Shown one piece after another: positions 1 to 29,054 of a DNA stretch of 34,363 nucleotides. Both the position numbers and the translations under genes were made by a program. Position 1 is the first letter of the stretch. Every line of letters starts with the position of its first letter. Under the pieces are notes generated by a model. It saw nothing but the letters and a program-made list of their open reading frames with translations. It did no database searches and had not been told where the DNA came from. Location of the stretch: assembly GCA_050943225.1 (NCBI GenBank), contig JBMNOT010000003.1, positions 1-34,363 on the forward strand, written 5' to 3'. This DNA is from Christensenellales bacterium. GTDB lineage: Bacteria; Bacillota; Clostridia; Christensenellales; SZUA-584.

Positions 1-2
1 CC

Positions 3-1220
3 GCCAAAAAACAGACCGGGGTCAGCTCGTTGCTGCTTGGATACTATGAAGGGGGCGAGCTGGTCTACGCGGGTCGGGCGGGCACCGGATTTACGGCTCG
101 GACCATGCGCGAGCTTGAGGAGAAGTTTCGGGCCATCATCCGCTCTGTTTCGCCGTTTAGAGACGCGTCGAAGCCCCGGAAAGACGAGAAAACAATCTGG
201 CTGGAGCCTGTCTTGGTGGCGCAGGTTAGGTTCGCGGAGTGGACGCAAAGCGGCACATTGCGGCAGGCGAGCTTTAAAGGGCTGCGGGAAGACAAAAACC
301 CGAAAGATGTCAGAAGGGAGAATGGCGACGTGGAAACGGGAGCGCAGCACGAGGAGGAAAAACGGATGGAAACAAAGCGGACGAGCGTCACGATTCATGG
401 AGTCAGGATCAGCAGCCCGGACAAGGCCATGTATTCAGACCCCGTCATCACAAAGCAGGAGGTCGCGGAATACTATTCCGCCGTGGCGGAACGCATGCTC
501 CCGTACGTCGGCAACAGGATACTCAGCATCATCCGCTGCCCTAAGAGCATATCCGGACAGTGCTTTTATAAGAAGCATCCCGGGCCGGGCTCCAAGGGCG
601 TGATCAATGTGCCACTGGAGAAGGACGGGGAAACCAAGTACTATTTTTATATCGACAATGTATTCGGGCTAATTTCCGAGGTGCAGATGGGCACGCTGGA
701 GTTTCATATCTGGGGGAGCCGCGTGAGCCAGCTGGAGCTGCCCGATATGATGGTATTCGACCTGGACCCGGGGGAGGGGCTGGGGCTGGACAAAATCCGC
801 GAGGGCGTGCGGGACTTAAAACGTTTGCTGGACGAACTGGCGCTGGTGTCGTACCTGAAGACGAGCGGCGGCAAAGGCTATCATGTTGTGGTGCCGCTGC
901 AGCCTTCGGTGGGTTGGGAGGCTTTCAGCGAATTTGCCAAGCGCATTGCGGAAGTGATGGAGCAGCGCTGGCCGGACCGTTACACCAGCAACATCCGGAA
1001 GGACAAGCGGCAGGGCAAAATATTCATCGACTGGATAAGAAACAGCCGGGGCGCCACCAGTATAGCCCCGTATTCGCTGCGGGCGAGGCCGGGCGCTCCG
1101 GTTTCCATGCCCATCTCTTATGAGGAACTGGATAATATTGCGCCGGACGGCGTCAACCTTCACGGCGCTTTGCAGAGAATCGCAAACAGAGACCCTTGGC
1201 AGGGCTTTTTTCGACGTTAA
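3..1220 (+). CDS. ligD: DNA ligase D (NHEJ), 3' part: ligase OB-fold end plus primase-polymerase domain; 5'-truncated by the window
   Basis: Frame is open from the window start. Ligase C-terminal motifs LLLGYY..YAGRAGTGF and LRQASFKGLREDK are followed by LigD polymerase motifs (ISSPDK, FDLDPG, KTSGGKGYHV, IFIDWIRN, APYSLRARPGAPVSMP). Confidence 0.92.
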   Translation, partial: AKKQTGVSSLLLGYYEGGELVYAGRAGTGFTARTMRELEEKFRAIIRSVSPFRDASKPRKDEKTIWLEPVLVAQVRFAEWTQSGTLRQASFKGLREDKNPKDVRRENGDVETGAQHEEEKRMETKRTSVTIHGVRISSPDKAMYSDPVITKQEVAEYYSAVAERMLPYVGNRILSIIRCPKSISGQCFYKKHPGPGSKGVINVPLEKDGETKYYFYIDNVFGLISEVQMGTLEFHIWGSRVSQLELPDMMVFDLDPGEGLGLDKIREGVRDLKRLLDELALVSYLKTSGGKGYHVVVPLQPSVGWEAFSEFAKRIAEVMEQRWPDRYTSNIRKDKRQGKIFIDWIRNSRGATSIAPYSLRARPGAPVSMPISYEELDNIAPDGVNLHGALQRIANRDPWQGFFRR

Positions 1221-1284
1221 ACAGCGGATAAAGGGGGAAAAGCTGTAACCTACTGCGGACGTAAAATCATATACGGTCCGGAAA

Positions 1285-1310
1285 TGCGCCATAAGCTGCG
1301 CCATAAGCTG
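1285..1310. repeat. 12-bp tandem duplication (tgcgccataagc x2)
   Basis: Exact copies at 1285-1296 and 1297-1308, followed by tg. Confidence 0.85.
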
Positions 1311-1345
1311 GTAAACAGTATCTATTTCCCGCGGCAATCCCGTAT

Positions 1346-1385
1346 AAAAGGAAGAGACCGCCGAATCGCTTCAGCAGCCTCTTCC
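1346..1385 (-). terminator. Intrinsic terminator ending the tRNA-Leu transcript
   Basis: Minus strand reads GGAAGAGGCTGCTGAA-GCGA-TTCGGCGGTCTCTTCC-TTTT. The 16-bp stem pairs fully only on the minus strand (G-U pairs). Confidence 0.8.
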
Positions 1386-1400
1386 CAAACCCTTCAAACC

Positions 1401-1578
1401 CCGATGTCTTGCCTGAGATGTCAGTCCTGATGTCTTCCCGGATGCCAGCCTGATGTCTTTTCCCGCTGTTATCTCCTGATATCTTTACCGGATGTCCATT
1501 CCTGATGTCTTTTTCCGCTGTTATCTCCTGATGTCATACCATCGTTGCCTGAACAAAGCTGTCATCACTGATGCCTGA
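1401..1578 (-). repeat. Degenerate ~13-nt periodic array (RNA sense GACAUC-AGG) in the tRNA 3' trailer
   Basis: Plus-strand GATGTC at 1403, 1417, 1429, 1452, 1491, 1504, 1530. Variants: GATGCC at 1441 and 1570, GATATC at 1478, GCTGTY at 1465, 1517, 1558. Includes a 35-bp direct repeat, 1449-1483 vs 1501-1535 (33/35 identical). Confidence 0.9.
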
Positions 1579-1665
1579 TGGTGCCGGTGGTCGGATTCGA
1601 ACCGACACGGTATCGCTACCAACGGATTTTGAGTCCGTCACGTCTGCCAATTCCATCACACCGGC
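1579..1665 (-). tRNA. tRNA-Leu (anticodon CAA), 87 nt, CCA encoded
   Basis: Reverse complement GCCGGTG..TGGAATTGGCAGAC..ACGGA-CT-CAA-AA-TCCGT, long variable arm, GTCGG-TTCGAAT-CCGAC, CACCGGC-A-CCA. Confidence 0.97.
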
Positions 1666-1682
1666 ATGTTTTCAACTATGTA

Positions 1683-1711
1683 AATATAGCACACTGCACC
1701 GTGAGCGTCAA
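1683..1711 (-). promoter_or_regulatory. Sigma-A-type promoter of tRNA-Leu
   Basis: Minus strand TTGACG-N17-TATATT with TG extension, 17 nt upstream of the tRNA 5' end. Confidence 0.75.
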
Positions 1712-1749
1712 GCTGAGCGTATACGGGGCAAAATAAGAGACTGCGGTGC

Positions 1750-1848
1750 AAAAAAAGCGGCAAACACCGGGAAGAAGTTTGCCGAAAAAGGGAGATGTAC
1801 ATTTTGTATTGTTGTTCCGATTGATGGGCCTTAAGATGCACAAAGATT
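1750..1848 (-). ncRNA. Candidate stand-alone small RNA (~100 nt)
   Basis: Lies between a minus-strand promoter (1855-1883) and a terminator CGGCAAAC-N11-GTTTGCCG-CTTTTTTT (1750-1784). No SD-led ORF inside. Confidence 0.5.
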
Positions 1849-1854
1849 ATTACA

Positions 1855-1883
1855 ATTATACCACCGATGGCTAATATTGCCAA
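1855..1883 (-). promoter_or_regulatory. Sigma-A-type promoter
   Basis: Minus strand TTGGCA-N17-TATAAT with extended -10 (TGG TATAAT). Confidence 0.7.
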
Positions 1884-2008
1884 CCTCTTTATGAAAAATC
1901 ATCAGAAAATCCAAAATAATATAATGTCCGCACCGTTCGTCAATTTTTTACCCGGCTTCTGCGTATACTTGTCTTATAGTACGCCGAAGATGAAAGGTGG
2001 ATCGCGCG

Positions 2009-3505
2009 ATGGACGAAATCAAATTCACCGAAGTATTTGATGTCTGGCCGCTGCCAGCCATACTGGTCGATATCCGGACGGGGCGGATTATAAAGGTCAA
2101 TCAGACGGCATCCCAGCTCGGGCTGGCTGCCGGGTCGCTCTCGGATATTATAGAGCACGAAAACGCAGTGAAAGCGTTGCTGTCGGCCGGGATGACGCCT
2201 GCCAATCATCAGACAAACATCGTGACGGGAGGCTCTGTCCAGGTGGCATCGGCGGTGGTGCGGCGCGTCTGCATCAGCGGGCAGGATATGCAGCTCATCG
2301 TCATCACGTCGATGAAGGAGCCGGGGCAGGATAGAACCGACATACTGGCAACGCTTTGCGAGATATTTGCCGGCAACCAGAAGAACGCGCTGCGCTCGTT
2401 CCTGCAGGCGTCCGCAATGGATGTGGGCGCATTTTCGGCGGCAGTATATGAAAAAAGGAAGGAGCGCTATATCATACGCGATGAATGGCGCAGCAGGCGT
2501 ACGGTGAGCATATCGATACTGAGCACGGATTTTGATGCACATCCGGAGCAGGAGATGGCACGCATCGGGCAGATCAAGCGGGCAGCCGGGCTGGGGTATG
2601 CGCATTTCATCAAGTCCTACGGCACACAAGGTGTGCTTGTTTACTTCTTCGACCATGTTCCGGACTCGGCAGTGCAGCCGCTCATCGAGAAATTCGCGCG
2701 GCTGCTGCGCGCGCTGATGCCGGACGTGCCTCGGCATAGCAGCACGGCGGTAATCCGGCAGGGGCTGGATGCTCTGAGGCAGGGCATCGCCATATGGGAG
2801 AAGGAGACAAAAAAGCTGCTGTACGAGAACAAGGCCTATCACGCGCTGTTCGGCGGCGGCGTGCCGTTTCTGGAGGACCGCCGCGGCATCGGTCCCACGA
2901 CCTTTACCGACGGGGCGGGACGCCACTACAACCTGGTGCACACCGTCATCCGGACGGGCAGCCGGCGGCTGGTGGTCACCCACGCGGCTGACGTGACGCG
3001 CTATATGCTGACGGAGCAGAAACTGGCCATGACGGCCAAGACGGACCCGCTGACCGGCCTTTACAACCGGCGCGCGGGGCTGGAGATACTAGAGGAGACC
3101 TACAGCCGCAACCGCAAGTCAGGTCGCCCGCTGACGGTGGGCTTTGCGGATATCGACGGCCTGAAGCAGATTAACGACACATACGGGCACGGCGCGGGCG
3201 ACGCGATGATACGCTCGGTGGCGGATGTGCTGAAAAAGCATGTGGGGCCGGGTGGCACGGTATACCGGCTGGGCGGCGACGAATTCGTGCTGATACTGCC
3301 GGATGTCAATCAGGTGCAGGCCGCGCTGATAGCTGAGCAGATCAAAAATGGAGTCAAGAGGTGCTTTGCGGCCAGCATGCACAGCATATCCATCAGCTTC
3401 GGCTTCAAGCAGGCGGAATACACGCCGGAAGAGACCGCCGCTTCGCTGATAAATGTGGCGGATATGGATATGTACCGGGAAAAGAAGAACAAATCGGCCG
3501 ATTAA
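2009..3505 (+). CDS. GGDEF-domain diguanylate cyclase with unassigned N-terminal sensory (PAS-like) region
   Basis: TDPLTGLYNRR, DIDGLKQINDTYGHGAGD, YRLGGDEF and ADMDMYREK. ATG 2009 chosen because AAAGGTGG lies 8 nt upstream. Confidence 0.9.
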   Translation: MDEIKFTEVFDVWPLPAILVDIRTGRIIKVNQTASQLGLAAGSLSDIIEHENAVKALLSAGMTPANHQTNIVTGGSVQVASAVVRRVCISGQDMQLIVITSMKEPGQDRTDILATLCEIFAGNQKNALRSFLQASAMDVGAFSAAVYEKRKERYIIRDEWRSRRTVSISILSTDFDAHPEQEMARIGQIKRAAGLGYAHFIKSYGTQGVLVYFFDHVPDSAVQPLIEKFARLLRALMPDVPRHSSTAVIRQGLDALRQGIAIWEKETKKLLYENKAYHALFGGGVPFLEDRRGIGPTTFTDGAGRHYNLVHTVIRTGSRRLVVTHAADVTRYMLTEQKLAMTAKTDPLTGLYNRRAGLEILEETYSRNRKSGRPLTVGFADIDGLKQINDTYGHGAGDAMIRSVADVLKKHVGPGGTVYRLGGDEFVLILPDVNQVQAALIAEQIKNGVKRCFAASMHSISISFGFKQAEYTPEETAASLINVADMDMYREKKNKSAD

Positions 3506-4368
3506 CGCTTAACCAGGCCGCTGTGGATGAGAATCTGGTCGATCTCCTCGGCTTTGTTCATCGTGTAGAGATGAAATTTGTTGATACCGTGCTCCATCAG
3601 CAGGGCGATCTGCCGGACCGCATATTCCAGGCCGGCTTTTTTAAATTCCTCCGGCTGCTCGCCGTAGCGGCAGATGATCTTGCTGAGCGGCGCGGGGATG
3701 GAGCAGGCGGAGAGCAGCGCCATGCGGATGATCTGGTTGGGGTTCAGCACCGGCATGATGCCCGTCACCACCGGCGTCTTGACGCCCTCCTTATAGAGCC
3801 GTTCGTACAGGTTTATCACGGCGCCGGTGTCGAAGCACAGCTGCGTGATAAACAGGTCCACGCCGAGCTGCGCTTTTAACTTCATATATTCAATATCCTG
3901 ATCCAGCGATGGGCTTTCCACATGCGCTTCCGGATAAGCAGCAGCTGCCACGATAAAGCTGGGGCGTTTTTTGATTTCAGCTATCAGGTCGGTTGCGTGG
4001 CGGTAGTGCGTGAAGGCGGTCTCGCGGTCCATGCCCGCCGGTACGTCGCCGCGCAGCGCCAGCACATTCCGAACGCCTTTTGCCTTCAGCGTGTCCAGTA
4101 TTTCGGAAATCATGGCGGGGGTTGCGCCCACGCACGTCAGGTGGGCGATGGCGTTAAGGCCCATCGAACTCACCTGGGAGACGACGTCCAGCGTGCGGTC
4201 GCGGTTGCCGCCGCCCGCGCCATATGTTACGCTGACAAATACGGGCCGCCGAACAGCTAGCCGGTCGATGGCAGAAAAGACGGTGGACATGGGCATATCC
4301 TTTTTTGGCGGAAAAAATTCAAGGGAAAACGCGCTTTCTTTGGCGATTAGCTGCCGGATAATACCCAT
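3502..4368 (-). CDS. metF: Methylenetetrahydrofolate reductase
   Basis: FSLEFFPPK, SVTYGAGG, AHLTC, LALRGD, AAYPEAH, ITQLCFD, HLYTMN. ATG 4368 follows AGGAG. Stop overlaps the convergent GGDEF stop (TTAA, 3502-3505). Confidence 0.92.
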   Translation of the reverse strand: MGIIRQLIAKESAFSLEFFPPKKDMPMSTVFSAIDRLAVRRPVFVSVTYGAGGGNRDRTLDVVSQVSSMGLNAIAHLTCVGATPAMISEILDTLKAKGVRNVLALRGDVPAGMDRETAFTHYRHATDLIAEIKKRPSFIVAAAAYPEAHVESPSLDQDIEYMKLKAQLGVDLFITQLCFDTGAVINLYERLYKEGVKTPVVTGIMPVLNPNQIIRMALLSACSIPAPLSKIICRYGEQPEEFKKAGLEYAVRQIALLMEHGINKFHLYTMNKAEEIDQILIHSGLVKR

Positions 4369-4477
4369 AGACCTGCTCTCCTGTGATTTTTTATATCGCA
4401 TAGTTATGAACAGTGTTATTTAACCATAAAGCCGGGATGCTTGCAAGTGGTTGAATAATGGCGAAAGAAGGTGTATC

Positions 4478-5095
4478 ATGGCTGAGAGGTGTGCCATGGA
4501 GGTTTTCCCGTATCTGCCGTTTGTGCCGGATAGAAAAACAGTGATGCGGCGGCTGGGTTCGCAAAGAGCGTCGCTGCCCGCGGAGCTATCGGATAATATC
4601 GATGCGCTGTTGCGGCAGGCGGAATCCGCTTTCACGGTACGCGCAAAGGCTGCGGTTTTTCCGCTGGAACATCTGGACAGCGCGCATGTCAGCGTCGCAG
4701 GGGCAGTGGTGGAATCGGCCATGCTCGCGCGGCTGCTGGAAAAAAGCTCTGCTGCCTATGTGATGGGGGCTTCCATCCCTGCGCGGGATGTGGAAAAGAT
4801 CAGCGGGGCCATGCGGGCCGGGGAAGGGCTGAAAGCCATCGTGTTCGACGCGTATGCTTCCGAATATGTGGACGGCGTGCTGGACGTGATTATTGCCCGC
4901 AAGAACGAGGCATTAAGGCGCACCGGGCAGAAGTTGACGAAACACCGGTTCAGCCCGGGCTATGGTGACCTTGACATCTCATATCAGAAGGTGTTTTACG
5001 ATCTGCTGGATATGCAGACGCTGGACGTGACGATAAATGAAAACTATCTGCTGTCGCCGGAAAAATCGGTGATTGCAATAGCCGGAGTGGAGTAA
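4478..5095 (+). CDS. Stand-alone methionine synthase (B12) reactivation-domain protein
   Basis: DAYASEYVD, RFSPGYGDL and LSPEKSVIAIAG; abuts metH. Start could be 4478 or 4496. Confidence 0.85.
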   Translation: MAERCAMEVFPYLPFVPDRKTVMRRLGSQRASLPAELSDNIDALLRQAESAFTVRAKAAVFPLEHLDSAHVSVAGAVVESAMLARLLEKSSAAYVMGASIPARDVEKISGAMRAGEGLKAIVFDAYASEYVDGVLDVIIARKNEALRRTGQKLTKHRFSPGYGDLDISYQKVFYDLLDMQTLDVTINENYLLSPEKSVIAIAGVE

Positions 5096-7468
5096 TTGAA
5101 GACGATAGACGGACTTAATTTTCTGGACTTTCTGAAACATCGCATCATGGTGCTGGACGGCGCAACAGGCACCGCGCTGCAGCACAGCGGCATGGGCCCC
5201 GGCGTTTGCCCGGAGCTGTTTGCGCTGGAGCATCCCGGGATTTTAACCGATGTGCAGCGGCGGTATATAGACGCCGGAGCGCAGGCGATATATACGTTCA
5301 CGATGGGCGCGAACGCGCATAAGCTGAGCGAGTTTGCGCTGCGGCACGACGTGCGCCGCATCAACGCGGAACTGGCTGCGCTGTCCGTCAAAGCGGCGGG
5401 GAGCCACGCTTTCGTCGGCGGCGACGTCAGTTCTACCGGCTCGTTTCTGGCGCCGCTGGGCGATCTGGAATTTGAGCAGGCGGTGGACATATACCGGGAG
5501 CAGATATCCGCTTTGGCGGAAGCCGGTGTGGATTTCATCGTGATCGAGACGATGATTGACATCCAGAAGGCGCGCGCCGCGGTGATTGCCGCCAAGGAGT
5601 GTTGCGACCTGCCGGTGGTGGCGAGCATGACGTTTGATACCCACGGGCGGACGCTGACCGGCACCAGCCCGGCAGCCGCCGCCATGACGCTGATTTCGGC
5701 CGGAGCTGACGTGGTGGGGCTCAACTGCTCGACGGGTCCGGCGGAGATGGTGCCGCTGGTGGAAGCGATGAAGGCGGTATCCAGCGTGCCGCTGCTGGTC
5801 AAGCCCAACGCGGGCATGCCGCGCATCGAAAACGGACGGACGCTGTTCGATATGTCGTGCGAACAGTTCAGGGCATACATTAAGCCGCTCTGTGAGGCGG
5901 GCGCCAACATGATCGGCGGCTGCTGCGGTACGGACCCGGACTATATACGGGCCATTTCCGACGAGGTTGCTTCGTTTTCGCCGATGCCGTGGCGGGAGGA
6001 GATGCCGGCGGCGCTGACCTCGGTATCCGATGAGGTGTATATCGGCAAAAGCTTCGCCGTGATCGGCGAGAGGATAAACCCTACCGGCAAACCCAAGCTT
6101 AAGGAAACGCTGCGCGCCGGCCATTTCTACGAGGTGCTGGACATGGCGCTGGAGCAGAAGGACAACGGCGCACACATACTGGACGTCAACGTGGGGCTGC
6201 CTGGCGCTGACGAAATGCAGCTGATGAAAAAAGCCATCGAGATGCTGTCGGTGAGGGCCAAGCTGCCGCTTTCCATCGATTCTTCCAATCCCGACGTCAT
6301 CGAAAAAGCGCTGCGCATCTATCCGGGACGCGCGCTGGTCAACTCGATGTCTGCCAAGGCCGAGCATATAAATGCGCTGCTGCCCCTGATACGGCGCTAT
6401 AAGCCGATGTTCATACTGCTGCCCATCGGCGAGGGCGGTATTCCGCAGACCGCCGAAGGCCGCATCGCTGAGATTAAGGCGGCTTATGAGACAATCGCGG
6501 CGGCGGGCAGCGGCAAGGACAGCATACTGGTGGACGGACTGGTGATGGCCGTTTCCTCTGACCCCAAGGCCGCGAAAGAGACGCTCAAGGTGGTCCGGTG
6601 GTGCACGGAGAACGGTTTTCATACCGTGCTGGGCATATCCAACGGCTCTTTCGGCTTGCCGGAGCGCCGCTTCCTCAACGCGGCGTATCTCGTGATGGCG
6701 ATGGGCTGCGGCCTTTCCGCCGCCATCATGAACCCCAACGACAAGCTGATGATGGATATGTGTTTCGCGGCCCAGGCGTTGACGGAACGTGACGAGGGTT
6801 TTGCGCAATACATCAGGCGGTTTGGCGAAACACAGGCGCCGGAGACGGAGACGGCCAGCGTGACGGACGCCATACTTACCGGCAAGAAAAAGATTATCGC
6901 GGCGCTAATCGACGCGGAGATTGCGGGCGGCGCCACGCCCGAGGCCATTATCAACGACATGATTATACCGGCGCTGCGCAGGGTGGGCGACCTGTATGAG
7001 CAGCGCGTGTACTACCTGCCGCAGCTGATATACAGCGCCGAAGCGGCGCAGGCTGCCTTTGGCTATCTGGAGCGGCATTTTGCCCCGGCCAGTTCCACGG
7101 CTAAAAAGAAAATCGTGATGGCGACGGTAAAAGGTGACATCCACGACATCGGCAAAAATTTGGTGGCAATGCTGATGAAGAACCACGGGTTTGAGGTGAT
7201 CGACCTCGGCAAGGACGTGCCCGCGCAGACCATCGTGGACACGGCGAAACAGCACGACGCCGATGTCATCGGCTTGTCAGCCCTGATCACGACGACGGCG
7301 CGCGAGATGGAAAAGGTGGTGCGGATGGTCCGCGAAGCGGGCCTCAGAGCCAAAGTGATCGTGGGCGGCGCGGTGATTACAGAAGATTATGCCAGGAGCA
7401 TTGGCGCTGACGCCTACGCCCCCGACGCGGCGGGCGCGGTGAAAGCGGTATCAAAGCTGCTGGAATAA
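5096..7468 (+). CDS. metH: Cobalamin-dependent methionine synthase (homocysteine, pterin and B12-binding domains; no activation domain)
   Basis: VLDGATGT; Zn ligands GLNC and GGCCG; IGERINPTGK; DVNVG; B12 motif VKGDIHDIGKN..GLSAL..VGGA. TTG start directly after the upstream stop. Confidence 0.93.
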   Translation: MKTIDGLNFLDFLKHRIMVLDGATGTALQHSGMGPGVCPELFALEHPGILTDVQRRYIDAGAQAIYTFTMGANAHKLSEFALRHDVRRINAELAALSVKAAGSHAFVGGDVSSTGSFLAPLGDLEFEQAVDIYREQISALAEAGVDFIVIETMIDIQKARAAVIAAKECCDLPVVASMTFDTHGRTLTGTSPAAAAMTLISAGADVVGLNCSTGPAEMVPLVEAMKAVSSVPLLVKPNAGMPRIENGRTLFDMSCEQFRAYIKPLCEAGANMIGGCCGTDPDYIRAISDEVASFSPMPWREEMPAALTSVSDEVYIGKSFAVIGERINPTGKPKLKETLRAGHFYEVLDMALEQKDNGAHILDVNVGLPGADEMQLMKKAIEMLSVRAKLPLSIDSSNPDVIEKALRIYPGRALVNSMSAKAEHINALLPLIRRYKPMFILLPIGEGGIPQTAEGRIAEIKAAYETIAAAGSGKDSILVDGLVMAVSSDPKAAKETLKVVRWCTENGFHTVLGISNGSFGLPERRFLNAAYLVMAMGCGLSAAIMNPNDKLMMDMCFAAQALTERDEGFAQYIRRFGETQAPETETASVTDAILTGKKKIIAALIDAEIAGGATPEAIINDMIIPALRRVGDLYEQRVYYLPQLIYSAEAAQAAFGYLERHFAPASSTAKKKIVMATVKGDIHDIGKNLVAMLMKNHGFEVIDLGKDVPAQTIVDTAKQHDADVIGLSALITTTAREMEKVVRMVREAGLRAKVIVGGAVITEDYARSIGADAYAPDAAGAVKAVSKLLE

Positions 7469-8326: not shown

Positions 8327-8406
8327 ACTATATAGACATCATTATTATTCATTTCATTATTAATGATATCAGGAATCATACATACGTATTACGGAGGTTT
8401 TTTGGA

Positions 8407-11400
8407 ATGGATATGGTAATGGAGAAAATTGGCGCGTTGAAAGAGGAGAGGTCTTTCAAGAACCTTTACTCGATCATATGCAGCCATGGCGACGCCGTTG
8501 CGGTGGAGTACCAGGAAGATGGCGAAATTCGCAAACTCACATATGCCGACTATGAGCGCATTTCAGTGGTCGCTGCGGATAAACTGTCCCGCCTGTTGGA
8601 CGGCACCGAGAAGAATACGTTTGTGGCGCTGCGGCTGCCCAACAGCCCGCTTTGGCCCGTGGCTTTCTGGGCGATCATTATGGCCGGTTACCGGCCGCTG
8701 CTGGTGGACGCAAATGCGGACGATGCGGCGGTGATACATATACTGCGCCAGGCCGGATCGCGCACCATCGTGACGGATTCGCCGGTGAACGTGGGCGGTG
8801 TGAAGGTGATCAAGGCTGATTCGTTCCTCAGCCTGGATGCACAGACCACTTCTTATATCCCCGTGTTTGGCGACGCCATCGCGCTGTGCACTTCGGGTAC
8901 CACCGCGACGCCCAAAGTCTACGTATACAAGGAAGATGCCATCTGCGAGCAGGTACTGCTTGCCGAGTACATCTATCAGAACAACCAGGACATCATCCAT
9001 AACGGGTCCATCAAGCAGCTGGCGTTTCTGCCATTCCACCATATATTTGGCCTGATTGCCGTGTATTTGTGGTATACGTTTTTCGGCAAGACAATCGTCT
9101 ATATCAAAAACCGCACTGCGGATGTGATACTCTCGGCCTGCAAGGAACACAAGGTGACGCATATTTACGCCGTGCCGCTGCTGTGGAACAACGTGGCCAA
9201 GGGTATAGTGCGCAAGGCAAAGCTGCAAGGCGAAGAGGTTTACGACAAGCTGATGAACGCCAGCGACCTTAGCATAAAGCTGCAGAGGCGTCTGGGCAAG
9301 ACGGGCCGCAAGCTGGTTTCCAAGCTGTTCTTCAAGGACCTGCAGCAAAAACTGGTGGGCGACAGCATCCAGTTTATGATCAGCGGCGGCGGGCATATCC
9401 AGCCGGAAACGCTCAAGATCATCAACTCGATAGGTTACCCGCTGGTGACCGGCTTCGGCATGACGGAAACGGGCATCGATTCGGTGGAACTGTCGGACGA
9501 CATCGACAGGAAGCTGGACGCCAGCGTGGGCAAGCCATTTGCGCCGATGCAGTACCGCATTGTTTACGAGCGCCCGGGTGACAAGACAGGCGAGCTGCAG
9601 ATATACGGCAAGGCGATGCATTCGGGCCGCATGGTGGACGGTGTGTATATTCCGCGCGAAGACGGCTGGTTTTCCACCGGGGATATTGCGCGCGAGGAGA
9701 ACGGGCGTTTTTACATCGAAGGCCGCTTAAAGGACGTAATCGTGGACGAATCCGGCGAGAACGTGTATCCCGACGAGCTGGAGGACAGCTTTTCAGAGCT
9801 GCCGTACGTGGAGCATATGTGCGTGGCCGGCATTGCGACCAAGGGCGTGTACGACGACATCGCGCTGGTCGTCTATTTGGGCGAGCACACCGGCTCTGCC
9901 GAAAAAACCAGCGAGCTTATCGCGGAGATCGTGCGCATCAACGGCCTTTTGCCCATCTATAAGAAACTGAGGCGCGCGTACATTTCGCTGGACCCGCTGC
10001 CGCTGGCCAACGGTATCAAGGTGCGCCGGCAGAAAGTGAAGGAAGCGCTGGAGCGTGGTCAGGGCCGATTCCAGGAGATCGATGTGCGCGGCGGCGTCAT
10101 CAAGGATGCCGTGAAGCCGGAGCCGGGTCAGCCTGCCGCAAACGGCGTGGTATATAACGGCGCCGAGTATCAGGAGATCAAGGAAAAGGTGCGCCAGATA
10201 TTTGCGGAAGTACTGGGCGTGGAACCTTCTTCCATCAAGGATACCGACCATTTCGTGGAGGACCTGGGCGGCGACAGCCTGTCCAGCCTGGGCGTTTTCT
10301 CCAAAGCGGAGGAGATGTACGGCATCATCATTCCGGATACCGAGTATTTCTCCTGCGCCACGGTGGAGGACTTTGCCAAGCTGCTGTACCGCAAGCTCAA
10401 CAATCTGGAGGCCAAGGCGCCGGAGACGCGGCGCGAAGCAGTGCGCAGGATTACCGATTTCCGCTCGTCACGTGAATACGCCGAATACGCGCAGCGCCGC
10501 CTGAGCATGCAAGACGCGGGCATCAAGGACCCCTATTTCGTGGCGCACGATTCGGTGCTGAGCGATACTTCCATTGTGGCGGGCCGCGAAGTGATCAACC
10601 TGGCGTCGTATAACTACGTGGGCATGTCGGGTCACCCGCGTACGGTAGAAGCTGCCAAGAAGGCGATCGATATGTACGGCACGTCGGCTTCCGGTTCGCG
10701 GCTGATCGCTGGGGAGAAAACGCTGTACCGTGAACTGGAGAAAGTGATTGCTCAGTGGAAGCACACCGACGACGTGCTGGTGATGGTGGGCGGCCATTCC
10801 ACCAACGTCACGTTCGTGGGCAATTTCTGCAACGAGCACGACCTGATACTCTACGACGCGCTGTCGCACAACTCCATCCTGCAGGGCTGCCAGCTCTCGA
10901 GAAGCGACACCAAGGCTTTTCCGCACAACGATATCGACGCGCTGGAGCACCTTTTGAAGGCAGCGCGCGACAAATACGAGAAAATCCTTATCGTCGTGGA
11001 AGGCGTGTATTCGATGGACGGCGACATCGCGCCCATTCCGGATTTTGTGGCGCTCAAAAAGAAATACGGCGCTTTCCTGATGGTGGATGAAGCGCACTCC
11101 AGCTGCGTGATCGGCAAACACGGCGGCGGCGTGGACGACTATTTCGACCTGCTTCCCGGAGACATCGACATTAAGATGGGTACGCTCTCCAAGGGCCTCG
11201 GCACGTGCGGCGGATATATCGCCGGCGAGCAGAGCCTTATCGACTACCTGCGCTACTCGCTGCCCGGCTTTATGTTCTCCGTGGGCATCAGCCCGCCGCT
11301 GGCCGCTGCGGCGCTGGAGGCCGTTAAGATCATGATGGAGGGCAATCCGCGCGTTGCGGCGCTGCATGAAAACATCAAGTATTTTGTGGAAGGCGCCAAG

Positions 11401-11667
11401 CGGCGCGGCTTTGACACCTGCCTGGCCAAGGAGACGGCGATCATCCCGATCATGGTGGGCGAGGACAACGATGCGTACGAGCTGTCCACGCTGATGCTGG
11501 AGCACGGCGTGTTCGTGCCGCCTGCGGTCTACCCGGCGGTGCCCCGCCATCAGGCGCGGCTGCGGTTCTGCGTGATCAGCGAACACAAGAAGGAACAGCT
11601 GGACTACGCGCTGGATACGCTGGACAAGCTGTTCGCACAGAAAGGGATATTCAAACAGATAAGATAA
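8407..11667 (+). CDS. Tri-domain protein: long-chain acyl-adenylate-forming domain + acyl carrier protein + PLP-dependent alpha-oxoamine synthase (SPT/AONS family)
   Basis: Adenylation motifs CTSGTTATPK, FLPFHH, GFGMTE, WFSTGD, GRLKDVI..GENVYP. ACP motif DLGGDSL (Ser624). AOS motifs NLASYNYVG, SASGSR, EGVYSMDGD, VDEAHS, GTLSK (Lys929), ARLRF. SD GGAGG. Confidence 0.9.
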   Translation: MDMVMEKIGALKEERSFKNLYSIICSHGDAVAVEYQEDGEIRKLTYADYERISVVAADKLSRLLDGTEKNTFVALRLPNSPLWPVAFWAIIMAGYRPLLVDANADDAAVIHILRQAGSRTIVTDSPVNVGGVKVIKADSFLSLDAQTTSYIPVFGDAIALCTSGTTATPKVYVYKEDAICEQVLLAEYIYQNNQDIIHNGSIKQLAFLPFHHIFGLIAVYLWYTFFGKTIVYIKNRTADVILSACKEHKVTHIYAVPLLWNNVAKGIVRKAKLQGEEVYDKLMNASDLSIKLQRRLGKTGRKLVSKLFFKDLQQKLVGDSIQFMISGGGHIQPETLKIINSIGYPLVTGFGMTETGIDSVELSDDIDRKLDASVGKPFAPMQYRIVYERPGDKTGELQIYGKAMHSGRMVDGVYIPREDGWFSTGDIAREENGRFYIEGRLKDVIVDESGENVYPDELEDSFSELPYVEHMCVAGIATKGVYDDIALVVYLGEHTGSAEKTSELIAEIVRINGLLPIYKKLRRAYISLDPLPLANGIKVRRQKVKEALERGQGRFQEIDVRGGVIKDAVKPEPGQPAANGVVYNGAEYQEIKEKVRQIFAEVLGVEPSSIKDTDHFVEDLGGDSLSSLGVFSKAEEMYGIIIPDTEYFSCATVEDFAKLLYRKLNNLEAKAPETRREAVRRITDFRSSREYAEYAQRRLSMQDAGIKDPYFVAHDSVLSDTSIVAGREVINLASYNYVGMSGHPRTVEAAKKAIDMYGTSASGSRLIAGEKTLYRELEKVIAQWKHTDDVLVMVGGHSTNVTFVGNFCNEHDLILYDALSHNSILQGCQLSRSDTKAFPHNDIDALEHLLKAARDKYEKILIVVEGVYSMDGDIAPIPDFVALKKKYGAFLMVDEAHSSCVIGKHGGGVDDYFDLLPGDIDIKMGTLSKGLGTCGGYIAGEQSLIDYLRYSLPGFMFSVGISPPLAAAALEAVKIMMEGNPRVAALHENIKYFVEGAKRRGFDTCLAKETAIIPIMVGEDNDAYELSTLMLEHGVFVPPAVYPAVPRHQARLRFCVISEHKKEQLDYALDTLDKLFAQKGIFKQIR

Positions 11668-18187: not shown

Positions 18188-18280
18188 ATTACAAAATACA
18201 AAATAATTCTGCTCACACAGATTTCCGTTATTTTTGGGAGAATGATATAATACCAGTTATCAAAGACAACGGAGAAACAA

Positions 18281-19387
18281 ATGAACAAAAGAAGTCGTAA
18301 TAGACTGATTTTTTGGCCCCTGATGATATTGGCTGTATTGGCGCTGACCGCCTGTCAGGATTTCCGGAAGGTTTCCGGACCTGATCCGGTAGCGACAGCC
18401 GTTCCGCAGACGCCGGCGCCAGAGCTGTCCGAGCCGGCCAAAACAACAGCGCCGGTATACGAAGACGTGGTGAATCCCAACCAGACATACGGCTACGAGC
18501 AGATGATGGCAGATGCTCAGGCGCTGAGCGAGCAGTATCCGGACCTGGTGCGGCTGGGCAGCATCGGGCAGTCGGTGGAAGGCCGTGAACTGCTGCTGAT
18601 CACGCTGGGTACGGGCCCGAAGAAGCTGCTGCTGTTGGGCGCGCATCACGCGCGGGAATACATCACCGCAACGTTTCTGATGGAAACGGCGGACGTGTAC
18701 GCGCGCGCAGCGGTGACGGGCGGAACATACGGCGATTACGATCTTGCGGCGCTGCTGGAAGAGGTGACGTTGTATATCGTGCCGATGGTGAACCCCGACG
18801 GCGTGAATCTGGTGCAGAACGGCGTGGAAACCGTGAAGGCTCCAGAGAAGGTAAAAGCCATGCGTATGCTGAAGAGCTCGTATTCCGAGTGGAAGGCGAA
18901 CATCAACGGCGTGGACCTGAACCGGCAGTACCCCTGCCATTGGGAGAAAAAGGCGAGCAGTACCGACGTGCCCAGCTCCGAGATGTATAAGGGAACCGCG
19001 CCCGCCACCGAGCCGGAAGTGAAAGCGGTGATGGCGCTGTGCAACAGCCACGATTTCGAGCTGGCTGCCTCGTTCCACACCAAGGGCGAGGTGATCTACT
19101 GGGCGGACAGCGGTACGGAGGAAGCCATCGCGGCGGATGCGGCTATCGCGCAGTCGCTGGCCGAAGTGACGGGTTATGAGCTGATGCCCGTTTCCGAAGA
19201 CCCCGCGGTATACGGCGCGGGCTTTGAGAACTGGTTCCGGCAGGAGTTTAAGCGGCCCGGCTTCTGCGTGGAGCTGACGCCCTCGGACAAGACCTCCGTG
19301 CCGCACGATGACACGCAGTTTGACGCGCTGGTGTGGAAGCGGTCGAAGTATGTCGGCGCGCTGCTGATGCTGCAGGCGGCGGGCTGA
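18281..19387 (+). CDS. M14-family zinc carboxypeptidase lipoprotein (gamma-D-glutamyl-mDAP peptidase-like)
   Basis: Signal peptide with lipobox LTA-C and Pro-rich linker; IGQSVEGR, HHAREY, VNPDG, NGVDLNRQY, EPEV, SFHTKG, VEL. Confidence 0.85.
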   Translation: MNKRSRNRLIFWPLMILAVLALTACQDFRKVSGPDPVATAVPQTPAPELSEPAKTTAPVYEDVVNPNQTYGYEQMMADAQALSEQYPDLVRLGSIGQSVEGRELLLITLGTGPKKLLLLGAHHAREYITATFLMETADVYARAAVTGGTYGDYDLAALLEEVTLYIVPMVNPDGVNLVQNGVETVKAPEKVKAMRMLKSSYSEWKANINGVDLNRQYPCHWEKKASSTDVPSSEMYKGTAPATEPEVKAVMALCNSHDFELAASFHTKGEVIYWADSGTEEAIAADAAIAQSLAEVTGYELMPVSEDPAVYGAGFENWFRQEFKRPGFCVELTPSDKTSVPHDDTQFDALVWKRSKYVGALLMLQAAG

Positions 19388-19400
19388 CGGGCGAGATAGG

Positions 19401-19430
19401 TTGCCTGCAACTGCCCGGAAGGGGTAAAAT
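19401..19430 (+). promoter_or_regulatory. Promoter with CsoR-like operator upstream of the metal chaperone
   Basis: TTGCCT-N18-TAAAAT overlapping TGCCC-GGAAG-GGGTA (19412-19426), one mismatch from TACCC-N5-GGGTA. Confidence 0.4.
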
Positions 19431-19461
19431 ACTGGTAAACGATACGAGGGGAGAAAACACA

Positions 19462-19674
19462 ATGGCGGAAAAGACATACCGCGTCACCGGAATGGGCTGC
19501 GAAGCGTGCGTGGCTCGCGTGACCAAGGCGGTCTCAATGCTGGACGGGGTATCCCGCGCTGCAGTGGACCTCAAAAGCGAAACGCTGACGGTGGTGTACG
19601 ACGAGAGCAAGGTGGATTTCGCCAGATTGCGGGATGCCGTGGACAACGTGGGCTACGGCTTGGAGGAGATATAA
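19462..19674 (+). CDS. copZ: Heavy-metal-associated domain protein (CopZ-like copper chaperone), 70 aa
   Basis: MAEKTYRVTGMGCEAC (GMxCxxC) with terminal VGY; SD GGGGAG before ATG 19462. Confidence 0.85.
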   Translation: MAEKTYRVTGMGCEACVARVTKAVSMLDGVSRAAVDLKSETLTVVYDESKVDFARLRDAVDNVGYGLEEI

Positions 19675-19690
19675 GCGGTTTGTATTGCAC

Positions 19691-19731
19691 AAATTGCCGG
19701 CGGGTGAAAATTTGCCTGCATCGGCAATTTT
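19691..19731 (+). terminator. Hairpin/terminator after the copZ-like gene
   Basis: AAATTGCCG-GCGGGTGAA..TTTGCCTGC-AT-CGGCAATTTT inverted repeat. Confidence 0.6.
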
Positions 19732-19735
19732 GTTA

Positions 19736-19766
19736 TTGACATTGACGTAACGTCAGGGTTTATGCT
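19736..19766 (+). promoter_or_regulatory. MerR-type promoter with dyad operator
   Basis: TTGACA-N19-TATGCT; the long 19-bp spacer contains the palindrome TGACG-TAA-CGTCA (19743-19755). Confidence 0.85.
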
Positions 19767-19788
19767 GGCCTTTGGAGGTGAAGCTGAC

Positions 19789-20547
19789 GTGTATACGATC
19801 GGGCAACTGGCGAAGCTGGCGGGCGTGACTACCCGGACGCTGCGGTATTACGACCAGATCGGCCTGCTGAAGCCGGCGAAGACAAATGAGACGGGTTACC
19901 GTCTGTACGGGCCGAAGCAGGTGGACACGCTGCAGCAGATACTGTTTTACCGCGAACTGGGCGTGGGGCCGGAGGAAATCATCCGCATAATCAGTGCGCC
20001 GTCCTTCGACAGGCAGCGGGCGCTGGAAAGCCATCTTAAGGCGCTGATTAAGAGGCGGGAAGCTCTGGACGCGCTGATCAGCACCGTCAGCAAAACTCTC
20101 GAAGCACACAAAGGAGGGCTGACCATGACGGACGAGGAGAAGTTTGAAGGCTTTAAGAAAAAGCTTATAAAGGAAAATGAAGAGAAGTACGGCGCGGAGG
20201 CACGCAGCCTGTACGGCGACGCGGTGGTGGACGAATCCAACGCGAAGCTGATGGGCATGACGCCAGCGCAGTTCGCACGCATGCAGATGCTGTCCGCTGA
20301 GGTGAATGAAGCGCTGAAGATGGCGATGCAGACGGGCGATCCAACGGGAGAAGAAGCGCGCCGGCTGTGCGAGTTGCACAAACAGTGGCTGATGTGCACA
20401 TGGCCCCATTACAGCGCCGCGGCACACCGGGGCCTCGCGCAGATGTACATGGACGACGAGCGTTTTAAGGCATATTACGATAGCATTGCGCCCGGAGCCG
20501 CGGTGTTCCTGCGCGACGCGCTGCTTCATTTTTTGCCTGAGGCATAG
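19789..20547 (+). CDS. MerR-family regulator with TipAS domain (TipA/Mta-like)
   Basis: YTIGQLAKLAGVTTRTLRYYDQIGLLKP..GYRLY; C-terminal EEKYGAEARSLYG and HRGLAQMYMDDERF..YYD. GTG 19789 follows GGAGGTG. Confidence 0.9.
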   Translation: MYTIGQLAKLAGVTTRTLRYYDQIGLLKPAKTNETGYRLYGPKQVDTLQQILFYRELGVGPEEIIRIISAPSFDRQRALESHLKALIKRREALDALISTVSKTLEAHKGGLTMTDEEKFEGFKKKLIKENEEKYGAEARSLYGDAVVDESNAKLMGMTPAQFARMQMLSAEVNEALKMAMQTGDPTGEEARRLCELHKQWLMCTWPHYSAAAHRGLAQMYMDDERFKAYYDSIAPGAAVFLRDALLHFLPEA

Positions 20548-20565
20548 CCGCAGGTTTTTGACAAA

Positions 20566-20599
20566 CAGGCCGGATGAGATGGATTCGTCTGGCTTTTTT
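20566..20599 (+). terminator. Intrinsic terminator
   Basis: AGGCCGGATGAG..TTCGTCTGGCTT stem with G-U pairs, then a T-tract. Confidence 0.7.
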
Positions 20600-20687
20600 G
20601 TGCAGTCATGGCTTTGGGCTAGCGGTGAATAGAGTGATGACGCAATCATCTATGGTCAACCGGAAATAACTGGTGTATAGTTAGACT

Positions 20688-21650
20688 ATGAAAAACTATG
20701 ATGTGGTGGCGCTGGGTATAGCCGTTATGGATATAGTGGCGGCCCCGGTGGATAAAAACCTTTTCGAGTACAACAAAACGCCGGTGGACAGCGTGATACT
20801 GGCGCCGGGCGGCGACGCGGCCAACCAGGCGGCGCATCTGGCGCGGCTGGGGTGGCGCACAGCGCTGTGCTGCCGGCTGGGCGAAGACGCGCTGAGCCGC
20901 ATGTTCACGGCGGAGCTTGCCGCCGGCGGCGTGGACTTGTCGCACGCGGCGGTATCGCCGGAATCCGTGATGACTGCGGCTGTCGTGCTGGTGGCGGCGG
21001 ACGGGCAGCGCAGCATACTGCACCGCCGCGGCAACAATTACGACTTTTGCCGTGAGGATGTGAACCTAGACGTGATTGCCGGAGCGAGAGCGCTGACAGT
21101 GGGCAGCATATACGGCTGCCCCAAACTGGACGAGGACGGGCTGGAGCAGATACTTGCCCACGCCAAAGCGCACGGCGTGATGACGTTTGCGGACATGGCG
21201 ACGGATAAGCGGGGACTAAAGCTCGCAGGCATAAAGCCTTTGCTGCCGTATGTCGACTGGTTTTTGCCCAGCGAAGCGGAGAGCCGCTACCTGACGGACG
21301 GCATGGATTGCGAGGAGGCTGCTCGAGTATTCCTGGACATGGGCGTGCGCAACGTGGTCATCAAGCTGGGCGCGCGGGGCGCGTACGCCTGCGGCGAGGG
21401 CTTTGCGGGCTACGTGGACGCGTTTGACATCGACGCGGTGGATACCACTGGCTCGGGCGACGCGTTCTGCGCGGGGCTGATCCACAGCCTGCTCAGCGGG
21501 CAGGGCGCGGAGGAGGCGCTGACGTTCGCCTGCGCCTGCGGCGCGTATAACGCGCTTTACAGGGGCGCGGCTGCGGCCACGCTGAACCGATTTACGGTCG
21601 AAAATTTCATCAGGAAAACAGGCCGCCGTTTGGCCGGCGGAAGGAGATAG
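20688..21650 (+). CDS. PfkB-family carbohydrate kinase
   Basis: APGGDAANQA..LARLG, PSEAE, VIKLGARGA, VDTTGSGDAFCAG. Confidence 0.9.
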   Translation: MKNYDVVALGIAVMDIVAAPVDKNLFEYNKTPVDSVILAPGGDAANQAAHLARLGWRTALCCRLGEDALSRMFTAELAAGGVDLSHAAVSPESVMTAAVVLVAADGQRSILHRRGNNYDFCREDVNLDVIAGARALTVGSIYGCPKLDEDGLEQILAHAKAHGVMTFADMATDKRGLKLAGIKPLLPYVDWFLPSEAESRYLTDGMDCEEAARVFLDMGVRNVVIKLGARGAYACGEGFAGYVDAFDIDAVDTTGSGDAFCAGLIHSLLSGQGAEEALTFACACGAYNALYRGAAAATLNRFTVENFIRKTGRRLAGGRR

Positions 21651-21651
21651 C

Positions 21652-23136: not shown

Positions 23137-23164
23137 GGCATACGGGCATTTGAGCCCGGCAAAT

Positions 23165-23192
23165 AAAGGGAAAACAGCCGCCCGGGTCGAAT
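23165..23192 (+). promoter_or_regulatory. Candidate sigma-H promoter for glgBCDA
   Basis: AAAGGGAAA-N12-GTCGAAT versus sigma-H RnAGGAwww-N11/12-RnnGAAT. Confidence 0.5.
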
Positions 23193-23257
23193 ACACAAAG
23201 CAACGCAGTCGAAAGGAAAGTACGAAACCTGCTATGCGGAAAGGAAGGTTTCGGGGC

Positions 23258-25285: not shown

Positions 25286-26393
25286 GATCATCGACTTTCC
25301 CCTGTCCAACTGCACCAACTCCGGCATCGACACGGTGGGCGTGCTAACGCAGTACCAGCCGCTGGAGCTCAATTCCTACATCAGCACCGGCGCTCCATGG
25401 GATCTGGACAGCAACACGGGCGGCGTTTTTATACTGCCGCCTTACCTTAAGGCAGAGCGCGGCGAATGGTATTCCGGCACAGCCAATGCCATCTATCAGA
25501 ACAGCTTTTTTATCGACAAGTTCGACCCGGATTATATACTGGTGCTTTCGGGCGATCACATATACAAGATGGACTACAACGCCATGCTCAAGTTCCATAT
25601 CAAGACGGAGGCGTCGGCCACCATCGCGGTGATCGAGGTGCCCATCGAGGATGCGTCCCGCTTCGGCATCATGAACACCGACGAAAATTTCCGCGTGATC
25701 GAGTTTGAGGAAAAGCCTGCAAAGCCCAAGAGCAACCTTGTCTCGATGGGCGTGTACATATTTAACTGGCGCACCGTCAAGGCGTATCTTCAGGCGGACG
25801 CTGAGGACAAGAATTCCACTAACGACTTCGGCCGCGATATCATACCCAAGATGCTGGCGGCGGGCGAGCGGATATTCGCTTACCGGTTCAAGGGCTACTG
25901 GAAGGACGTCGGCACGGTGGAGAGCCTGTGGGAGGCCAACATGGAGCTGCTGCAGGACCGCCCGGCGCTGAACCTGCACGACCCGTCGTGGAAGATACTG
26001 TCCCGCAACCCCAACCAGCCGCCGCACTTTGTGGGCGACGGGGCCAAGATTTCTACCAGCCTTGTTTCGGAAGGCTGCCGCATATACGGCACGGTGGAGC
26101 ATAGCGTGCTGCTCCCCGATGTGACCATCGAAGCGGGGGCATATGTACGCGACAGCATCATCATGGAGAAGACAGTGGTGGGCGAGGGCTGCGAGATTAT
26201 CAGCACCATTATCGACGAAGGCGCAACGATAGGGCGCGGCTGCCGAATCGGCGGCGACGGGAAGATCACTGTGATCGGGCAGGGTGCAGCGCTGTCCGAC
26301 GGCATGGTGGTGGAGCCGGGCGTATCCATACAGCCCGACTGCAGGTTCGTCAACGACGTCTGCGAAAGCGGAGGTGCAGTGGCAAATGATTAA
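25170..26393 (+). CDS. glgC: Glucose-1-phosphate adenylyltransferase, catalytic subunit
   Basis: [72 protein letters not shown] start with GAGGTGAGG upstream. Confidence 0.95.
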
Positions 26394-27507: not shown

Positions 27508-27508
27508 T

Positions 27509-28999: not shown

Positions 29000-29025
29000 T
29001 ATAAGGAAATACGATCCTGCCGGAA

Positions 29026-29054
29026 TTGACACGAAGGGCAGAGCCTAATAGAAT
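29026..29054 (+). promoter_or_regulatory. Sigma-A promoter for glgP and downstream genes
   Basis: TTGACA-N17-TAGAAT in the glgA-glgP gap. Confidence 0.7.

Follow-up and report, generated by a model that had tools for sequence, protein, structure and literature searches.

Why should a bacterial tRNA gene be followed, before its terminator, by a long tail of short reiterated motifs? Transfer RNA trailers are usually regarded as processing waste, and one might expect little more from the DNA that lies downstream of the tRNA-Leu(CAA) gene in the 34,363-nucleotide stretch that we analysed as a whole (the window in what follows). A sequence-only reading of this locus had noticed there a series of hexamers related to GACAUC, and had proposed that maturation of the tRNA releases a sponge RNA, titrating either CsrA or some other protein that would recognise the motif. 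That the trailer bears repeats is confirmed. The question is then whether these repeats matter, whether they matter as RNA or as DNA, and which kind of partner, if any, they were selected to meet. We examine these points in turn, within the window and by comparison with a second genome, a MAG contig of a Christensenellaceae bacterium (class Clostridia; L004 hereafter).

A predicted transcription unit made of a tRNA and its trailer

The window holds a single tRNA gene, on its minus strand. The promoter, the tRNA-Leu(CAA) and the minus-strand terminator that had been read by eye were all located, with a promoter scan, with ARAGORN and Rfam, and with RNAfold, respectively (Table 1). Both hexamers of the promoter are unchanged in L004, where the 17-nt spacer between them shows two substitutions, and the promoter scan found no promoter-like site inside the trailer. 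The latter is placed between the tRNA of its transcription unit and an intrinsic terminator, without a promoter of its own, as is proper to a 3'ETS. The terminator hairpin, missing from the list produced by a simple terminator scan, came from RNAfold.

The downstream neighbour is a converging ligD gene (30-1220, plus strand), in which Pfam recognises Prim-Pol and ligase C-terminal domains, and it is because this next gene converges that nothing is encoded past the terminator on the strand of the RNA. An open reading frame antisense to ligD (816-1337, minus strand) matched no Pfam family at E up to 1.

Table 1. Features of the predicted tRNA-Leu(CAA) transcription unit, with positions in the window
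Feature	Position	Strand	Description and evidence
Sigma-70-like promoter	1683..1711	-	TTGACG-17-TG-TATATT; 10/12 consensus matches, TG extension
tRNA-Leu(CAA), CCA encoded	1579..1665	-	ARAGORN; Rfam RF00005, 53.6 bits; 87/87 identical in L004
Trailer, 233 nt	1578-1346	-	From the CCA end of tRNA-Leu(CAA) to the terminator
Trailer head	1536..1578	-	Degenerate motif copies, small predicted hairpin, 5' strand of the predicted closing helix; 42/43 identical in L004
Repeat array, 11 units of 11-14 nt	1399..1535	-	TRF, shuffles, unit parsing; 9 units in L004
Closing helix, predicted	5' strand 1553-1540; 3' strand 1393..1406	-	Array enclosed in a large loop
Intrinsic terminator	1344..1386	-	17-bp hairpin (1386-1349), then UUUUAU; RNAfold

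An array of alternating units

The array is built on a core of nine nucleotides, GACAUC(A/C)GG, that returns with a spacing of about 13 nt, the 5' ends of the units lying at 1535, 1522, 1509, 1496, 1483, 1470, 1457, 1446, 1434, 1422 and 1408. The hexamers that the sequence-only reading had placed at 1403, 1417, 1429, 1441, 1452, 1465, 1478, 1491, 1504, 1517 and 1530 coincide, 11 out of 11, with the units parsed in this way (5' ends minus 5). Two further hexamers, counted with them at 1558 and 1570, are indeed present; these, however, are degenerate copies (GACAGC, 1563-1558, and GGCAUC, 1575-1570) that belong to the trailer head and lie outside the array of 11 units. The first copy of the heptamer CAUCAGG is found still further upstream, spanning the CCA end of the tRNA (1580-1574).

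Two types of unit mostly alternate along the array, A (GACAUCAGG...) and B ((G/A)ACA(U/G)C(C)GG..AAA, with A-rich linkers), and this creates a super-period of 26 nt. The autocorrelation of the array is therefore strongest at 26 (0.59) and 52 (0.51), with further peaks at 39 (0.46) and 13 (0.41), and TRF likewise reports periods of 12, 23, 26 and 52. Purines make up 68% of the array. The hexamer GACATC is present there in seven copies, where dinucleotide shuffles average 0.29 and not one in 2000 reaches seven. Across the window and on both strands it has 31 matches, seven of which are gathered on one strand within 200 nt, while the longer string GAYATCMGG is found 10 times in the window where 0.99 would be expected, six of the 10 being inside the array.

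Conservation in a relative

Repeats may arise and vanish without consequence, and it is in the comparison of genomes that we may look for their retention. Relatives were sought by scanning genome contigs with the 3' 22-mer of tRNA-Leu(CAA), a procedure that reaches only those relatives sharing these 22 tRNA bases, and six loci were matched. Five of them, which belong to lineages that are not related (Gemmatimonadaceae, Caproicibacter, Saccharibacteria, Verrucomicrobiia and Moraniibacteriota), have ordinary trailers that contain no GACATC. The sixth is L004, which aligns with positions 1-2477 of the window at 88.4% identity over 2485 aligned nt and has in common with it the gene order ligD, trailer, tRNA, GGDEF gene. 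The sequence-only reading had suggested that relatives be searched for the array; it is present in L004 and, in this comparison of two genomes, conserved well above the neutral level.

The array of L004 has nine units (U1-U9), the first double unit of the window (W1+W2) being absent. This double unit is identical to W5+W6 of the window at 24 of 26 positions, and to the L004 orthologue of W5+W6 at 22 of 26; as it is closer to the former than to the latter, it is probably a lineage-specific duplication. Such a change in copy number, by whole double units, would fit a modular element acting through its valency.

The neutral level can be estimated from the genes on either side. At four-fold degenerate sites the window and L004 are identical at 135 of 172 positions in ligD and at 64 of 76 in the GGDEF gene, which makes 199 of 248 together (80%), and in the spacer just past the terminator (1345-1221) identity is 76% (85/112), with 13 further gap columns. 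Inside the trailer, the spacer that follows the array and the terminator (1398-1346) are identical at 51 of 53 positions. With this one relative, divergence thus amounts to about 4% in the trailer, whereas it reaches 20% for the four-fold sites and 24% in the DNA just beyond the terminator, and the number of substitutions per window of 100 columns is 1-4 in the trailer, 4-14 in coding DNA and 22-32 past the terminator. Since the trailer is conserved and identity drops at the terminator, conservation coincides with the predicted transcript. Just outside the latter, a perfect 12-nt duplication at 1285-1310 that is absent from L004 (TRF; alignment) illustrates how slippage can occur here neutrally and without being retained.

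Looking inside the array required some care, as MAFFT misplaces the 26-nt gap and thereby creates 11 array mismatches. A unit-wise alignment was used instead, that of the eight orthologous units W3-W10 and U1-U8 (101 positions), W11/U9, which extends into the closing helix, being excluded for this reason. Six substitutions are found in the 101 positions, two among the 72 of the cores and four among the 29 of the linkers, the linkers having in addition two indel nucleotides (Fisher p = 0.055 for cores versus linkers). Set against the neutral rate of 20%, the cores change too little (p = 1.9e-5) and the linkers do not differ from it (p = 0.28). The idea that a conserved core is separated by variable linkers applies to the 5' half of the array; it does not extend to the five 3' units, which are identical in both species, linkers included. 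This full identity suggests a constraint that would go beyond the bare motif, such as a specific RNA pairing or structure. With two genomes only, a low local mutation rate or local recombination could also be the source of the conservation that we observe.

An element probably read on the RNA strand

Folded as the minus-strand RNA, the trailer reaches -68.3 kcal/mol (z = -2.78), and one shuffle in 200 is as good; the plus strand has a z-score of -1.17 and is equalled by 23 of 200 shuffles. Applied to the two trailers, RNAalifold predicts the closing helix and the terminator, a small hairpin that follows the CCA end, and two others, also small, in the interior. The pairs of the closing helix have probabilities of 0.82-1.0 in the window and of 0.35-0.73 in L004, and the helix is kept by RNAalifold; it displays no covariation because both of its strands are invariant. 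The cores are predicted to be unpaired with moderate probability (0.35-0.70).

The few substitutions that fall in predicted helices are telling. The one in the trailer head converts a U.G into a C-G pair in L004, and the two in the terminator region convert G-C or U-A into G.U on the minus strand, where the plus strand would suffer an A.C mismatch. Pairing is kept in three cases out of three, and on the minus strand only; double compensatory changes number 0 among the 53 predicted pairs of these two trailers. An RNA made from the plus strand, as a 3' UTR of ligD, was rejected, its fold being no better than that of shuffles, its hairpin lacking a U-tract and the changes in the terminator giving mismatches there.

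The conservation of the trailer, the constraint on its cores and the pairing retained on the minus strand point to a conserved RNA element, not to neutral slippage, and we consider it probable that the trailer acts at the level of RNA and is under selection.

The message of this RNA does not appear to be a protein. On the RNA strand, the longest open reading frame contained entirely in the trailer has 22 aa (1469-1537), in agreement with the sequence-only reading, which had seen there only very short frames, of 22 aa at most. A coding function was rejected, as this frame is replaced by a different one of 30 aa in L004, has neither an SD sequence nor a Pfam match, and belongs to an array the period of which is not a multiple of three. 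Open reading frames of 33 and 41 aa begin in the tRNA and extend into the trailer. A role as an SD-like decoy of ribosomes was also discarded: AGGAG is present in W1 and W5 only, the W5 copy is not conserved in its L004 orthologue U3, and W1 has no orthologue.

A scan of Rfam, which had been recommended as a check, was run over positions 1-4000 with cmscan at E up to 10: only the tRNA rose above threshold and nothing was found within 1346-1578, so that the trailer is without a family match, the CsrB/CsrC/Rsm and RtT models included. In the open-access literature, the strings of the motif retrieved, among the matches listed, unrelated papers only, and nothing relevant to repeat-bearing bacterial tRNA trailers was found among the matches listed.

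A possible platform for an RNA-binding protein

We may now ask what such an RNA would do. The explanation that we prefer, tentatively and with somewhat less than even confidence, is that of a multivalent, single-stranded decoy or platform, coupled to a tRNA and meant for a sequence-specific binder. The tRNA-Leu(CAA) and the trailer would be made from one promoter and ended by the intrinsic terminator; once the tRNA has been excised the trailer would persist, its 3' end guarded by the terminator hairpin. Its purine-rich and largely unpaired centre would then display 11 cores about 13 nt apart, arranged as A/B pairs of 26 nt, in a large loop probably held by a closing helix of 12 bp. The array may in this way offer a binding platform, as a decoy or a sponge, to a protein or RNA that recognises single-stranded RNA in a sequence-specific manner. 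An oligomeric or dimeric protein would be a likelier binder than a sRNA, and it is the 26-nt pairing of A and B units that suggests such a partner. The dose of the decoy would be tied to the transcription of tRNA-Leu(CAA). Against this explanation stand the moderate unpaired probability predicted for the cores and the 5' UTRs of the window, in which, one possible case at 8365 excepted, no target-like motifs were found. The anatomy of the trailer, its repeats and their conservation, with signatures proper to the RNA strand, are shown; that it is expressed, released, stable and bound is our inference.

To our knowledge, protein-sponge RNAs are well documented in Proteobacteria and hardly known at all from the Clostridia or the rest of the Bacillota. 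It would be tempting to go further, and to see in the trailer the first tRNA-fused multivalent protein-sponge RNA of the Bacillota, with eleven GACAUC(A/C)GG sites in a helix-closed loop titrating a global RNA-binding regulator. In this extended form the proposal is doubtful. Were the sponge reading true, the free level of the regulator would track the transcription of tRNA-Leu(CAA), itself under growth-rate control.

Other ways to account for the trailer

A protein is not the only partner that one may imagine for reiterated single-stranded motifs. The trailer could be a base-pairing RNA, either a sponge of the 3'ETS type that captures a sRNA or a sRNA that itself acts in trans through its repeated seeds, and would pair with CCUGAUGUC-like transcripts. 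It has the very position of the leuZ 3'ETS sponge of E. coli, and the retention of the five 3' units and of the G-rich tail together with their linkers is what one would expect of a pairing interface placed beside a terminator. Yet no complementary RNA partner is visible within the window. An upstream sRNA-like unit shares with the array only a 9-nt CCGGGAAGA / UCUUCCCGG match, seen by eye, that an extra A weakens in L004; pairing of the array with this unit was set aside, as the predicted duplex ran over an unrealistic full length and was uninformative. We know of few sRNA sponges with as many as eleven reiterated sites, which would be unusual among them and counts against pairing as well. 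We hold this explanation to be unlikely.

It could also be that there is nothing to explain, and that the array is a functionless minisatellite, a slippage repeat hitch-hiking in a segment that diverges slowly, or was recently recombined, next to a tRNA gene. The copy number does differ by a double unit of 26 nt, apparently duplicated recently, slippage is at work locally as witnessed by the 12-nt duplication past the terminator, and only two sequences are at hand. Against it, the cores have changed at 2 of 72 positions where the four-fold sites have changed at 49 of 248, conservation stops exactly at the terminator, L004 has kept the array but does not have the neutral 12-nt duplication, and the changes in helices preserve pairing. 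This makes a neutral origin of the pattern quite unlikely.

Perhaps the trailer serves the tRNA itself. The units would mimic the 3' junction of the tRNA (..CCA|UCAGG) and provide entry or decoy sites for the nucleases of 3' maturation, a cis-acting element of processing or stability that would tune the output of tRNA-Leu(CAA). The heptamer that spans the encoded CCA end lends itself to this idea, and, with the degenerate copies in the trailer head, the array resembles an outgrowth of the junction sequence. The resemblance, however, is limited to seven nucleotides, and we know of no precedent for a reiterated mimic of a tRNA junction; such a role strikes us as quite improbable.

One subset of the protein-decoy reading is that the trailer is a sponge for CsrA, analogous to CsrB or RsmZ, the GGA-containing units titrating dimers of CsrA at one dimer per A/B pair. 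According to PMC6546359, CsrA binds GGA, single-stranded or in loops, and its sponge RNAs carry 13-22 GGA. The sequence-only reading had counted eight GGA on the RNA strand within 1425-1530, four of them as CAGGA, and these counts are right; eight GGA in 137 nt is a density comparable to that of CsrB, and the two 26-nt double units have paired GGA 14-15 nt apart. CAGGA is mildly enriched, with four occurrences against a mean of 0.86 in shuffles (17 of 2000 reach four). GGA itself remains at the level dictated by composition (8 versus 7.18 on average in shuffles, of which 839 in 2000 have at least eight), and the invariant element is GACAUC rather than GGA. Three units of 11 in the window (W7, W10 and W11), and three of nine in L004, are devoid of GGA, and these GGA-less units (CAGGCU, CUCAGGCAA, CGGGGU) do not differ between the two species. 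Hairpin loops presenting GGA are not predicted, though the cores may be single-stranded in part, and the CsrB/Rsm models of Rfam, as stated above, have no match in the trailer. In B. subtilis, the characterised Firmicute, PMC6546359 describes CsrA as antagonised through sequestration by the protein FliW, not by a sRNA. Scans of the ORFs of the window, 26 with Pfam and 22 further or unannotated ones with NCBIfam, none of the 22 having any match, revealed neither csrA nor fliW, in a greedy set that may include shadow ORFs. A link of the array to CsrA is not supported by these data, and a CsrA sponge is very unlikely.

That the repeats are sites for proteins at the level of DNA, such as integrase arm-type sites (which the sequence-only reading had itself raised), iterons or transposon-end repeats at a tRNA integration hot spot, is hardly credible, as is an origin in a mobile element, which was rejected: direct repeats with a 9-bp core, 50-180 bp from the 3' end of a tRNA, would suit them, but no integrase, transposase or recombinase domain was found by Pfam in 26 window ORFs, the 3' end of the tRNA (25-mer) has no second copy in the 34 kb at up to three mismatches, no similarity to the trailer was found in phages or plasmids, the order LigD, tRNA, GGDEF is also that of L004, a period of 13 bp is out of helical phase, and the substitutions of the G.U type make sense only as RNA.

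Known systems for comparison

In its position and in its proposed biogenesis, the trailer is closest to 3'ETS-leuZ. The latter, produced from the glyW-cysT-leuZ transcript of E. coli, is reportedly a short, non-repetitive by-product of tRNA processing that pairs with Hfq-dependent sRNAs. Both are non-coding, lie directly 3' of a tRNA-Leu and extend to an intrinsic terminator; the trailer described here, by contrast, has 233 nt and 11 reiterated units, comes from a Clostridia-like genome and has no sequence similarity with its E. coli counterpart.

Reiterated motifs are also found in sponges of the CrcZ type, which resemble the array in this respect. The CsrB/CsrC/RsmY/RsmZ family shares with the trailer many short, purine-rich, CAGGA-like motifs, an end at a terminator and, for the trailer as a proposal, the titration of a dimeric RNA-binding protein (PMC6546359). 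It differs from it in that the core is here GACAUC(A/C)GG, predicted to lie outside hairpin loops, that the RNA is fused to a tRNA gene, that no covariance model matches, and that the antagonism by FliW is the only one characterised for CsrA in this lineage.

Repeats next to a tRNA gene have a precedent in tyrT, where they are about 178 bp long, each starting with a duplicate of the 3' end of the tRNA. PMC4986893 describes the RtT RNA of E. coli as released, during tRNA processing, from this repeat-containing distal part of the tyrT operon. The overlap of the first motif copy with the CCA end of the tRNA is reminiscent of this arrangement; the repeats, however, are here of 13 or 26 nt, the Rfam RtT model has no match at E up to 10, and the phylum is a different one. 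Type III toxin-antitoxin systems of the ToxI kind, finally, have repeats of about 36 nt, each binding one protein subunit, with the toxin gene after them. A tandem array of short repeats in RNA, with a terminator behind it, is common to both, whereas the trailer has a period of 13 or 26 nt and no gene follows on the same strand, only DNA antisense to ligD. An antitoxin array of this type was rejected, as a downstream toxin gene is absent and the ORF 816-1337 belongs to no Pfam family.

On the points of membership that can be tested, the trailer falls outside each of these sequence families. By its sequence and its position, we may classify it as a putative regulatory RNA, based on repeats and derived from a tRNA trailer.

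What a selected trailer would mean

A conserved array of single-stranded motifs at a tRNA gene would offer a concrete bait with which a new sequence-specific RNA-binding regulator might be fished out. If the explanation that we prefer, a decoy dosed by the transcription of its tRNA, is true, the 3'ETS-leuZ of E. coli would be joined by a second and independent example of a regulatory RNA whose dose is set by the transcription of a tRNA. And even if the array proves to be a curiosity restricted to its lineage, it would tell us that repeats as short as 13 nt can be held under selection in the trailer of a tRNA.

Surroundings of the array-bearing tRNA gene

Directly upstream of the tRNA-Leu(CAA) promoter, and on the same strand, lies an sRNA-like unit (window 1883-1749, -), which continues for about 100 nt after its promoter and includes a single-stranded CU-rich stretch, CAUCUCCCUUUUU. 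CAUC..GG motifs at a spacing of 13 nt are also found within it. When compared with the relative L004, a contig of the same gene order named 'Christensenellaceae bacterium', 95 of the 101 aligned positions are identical (segment 1848-1745), and an Rfam scan with E up to 10 returned no family match, the top-scoring entry being Xoo2 (E = 6.7).

A short way beyond the terminator of the tRNA trailer there is a perfect tandem duplication of 12 nt (TGCGCCATAAGC, 2.2 copies; window 1285-1310), missing in L004, where it leaves a gap of 12 alignment columns. This is a neutral slippage event, whereas the conserved array behaves otherwise.

Other genes of the window

The 5' leader of an NRPS-like gene (window 8330-8406, +) contains GACATC followed, some 30 nt downstream, by GATATCAGGAAT; it is the only 5' UTR of the window in which an array-like motif was found. 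This leader could hold a target site of the single-strand RNA binder proposed for the array, or the likeness could be due to chance.

Features of the window outside the array
Feature	Position	Strand	Remarks
Promoter of sRNA-like unit	1883-1855	-	TTGGCA-17-TG-TATAAT; strong, 11/12 matches
Terminator of sRNA-like unit	1783-1750	-	hairpin GGCAAAC...GUUUGCC + U7
MTHFR	3502-4401	-	methionine-cycle cluster
B12-dependent methionine synthase	5096-7468	+	methionine-cycle cluster
NRPS-like gene	8407-11667	+	AMP-binding, PCP, aminotransferase domains
ORF without Pfam/NCBIfam match	18260-19477	-	example
ORF without Pfam/NCBIfam match	22961-25372	-	example
ORF without Pfam/NCBIfam match	27527-29032	-	example

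The methionine-cycle cluster (3502-7468) is a common housekeeping context; a 214-aa ORF listed between its two enzymes has no Pfam family match. Further on (18260-29032), several long ORFs of the greedy ORF set lack any Pfam or NCBIfam match, and some of them may be shadow ORFs of opposite-strand genes in this DNA of 58% GC, so that the gene map of that region is provisional. Two ORFs between 12815 and 14356 (+) resemble spore-surface families in Pfam, though weakly and below threshold: the CryBP1 match scores 26.4 bits, and the BclA_C match reaches 26.7 bits where the cut-off is 38. These similarities hint at a spore-forming lineage, though the relative bears the name Christensenellaceae.
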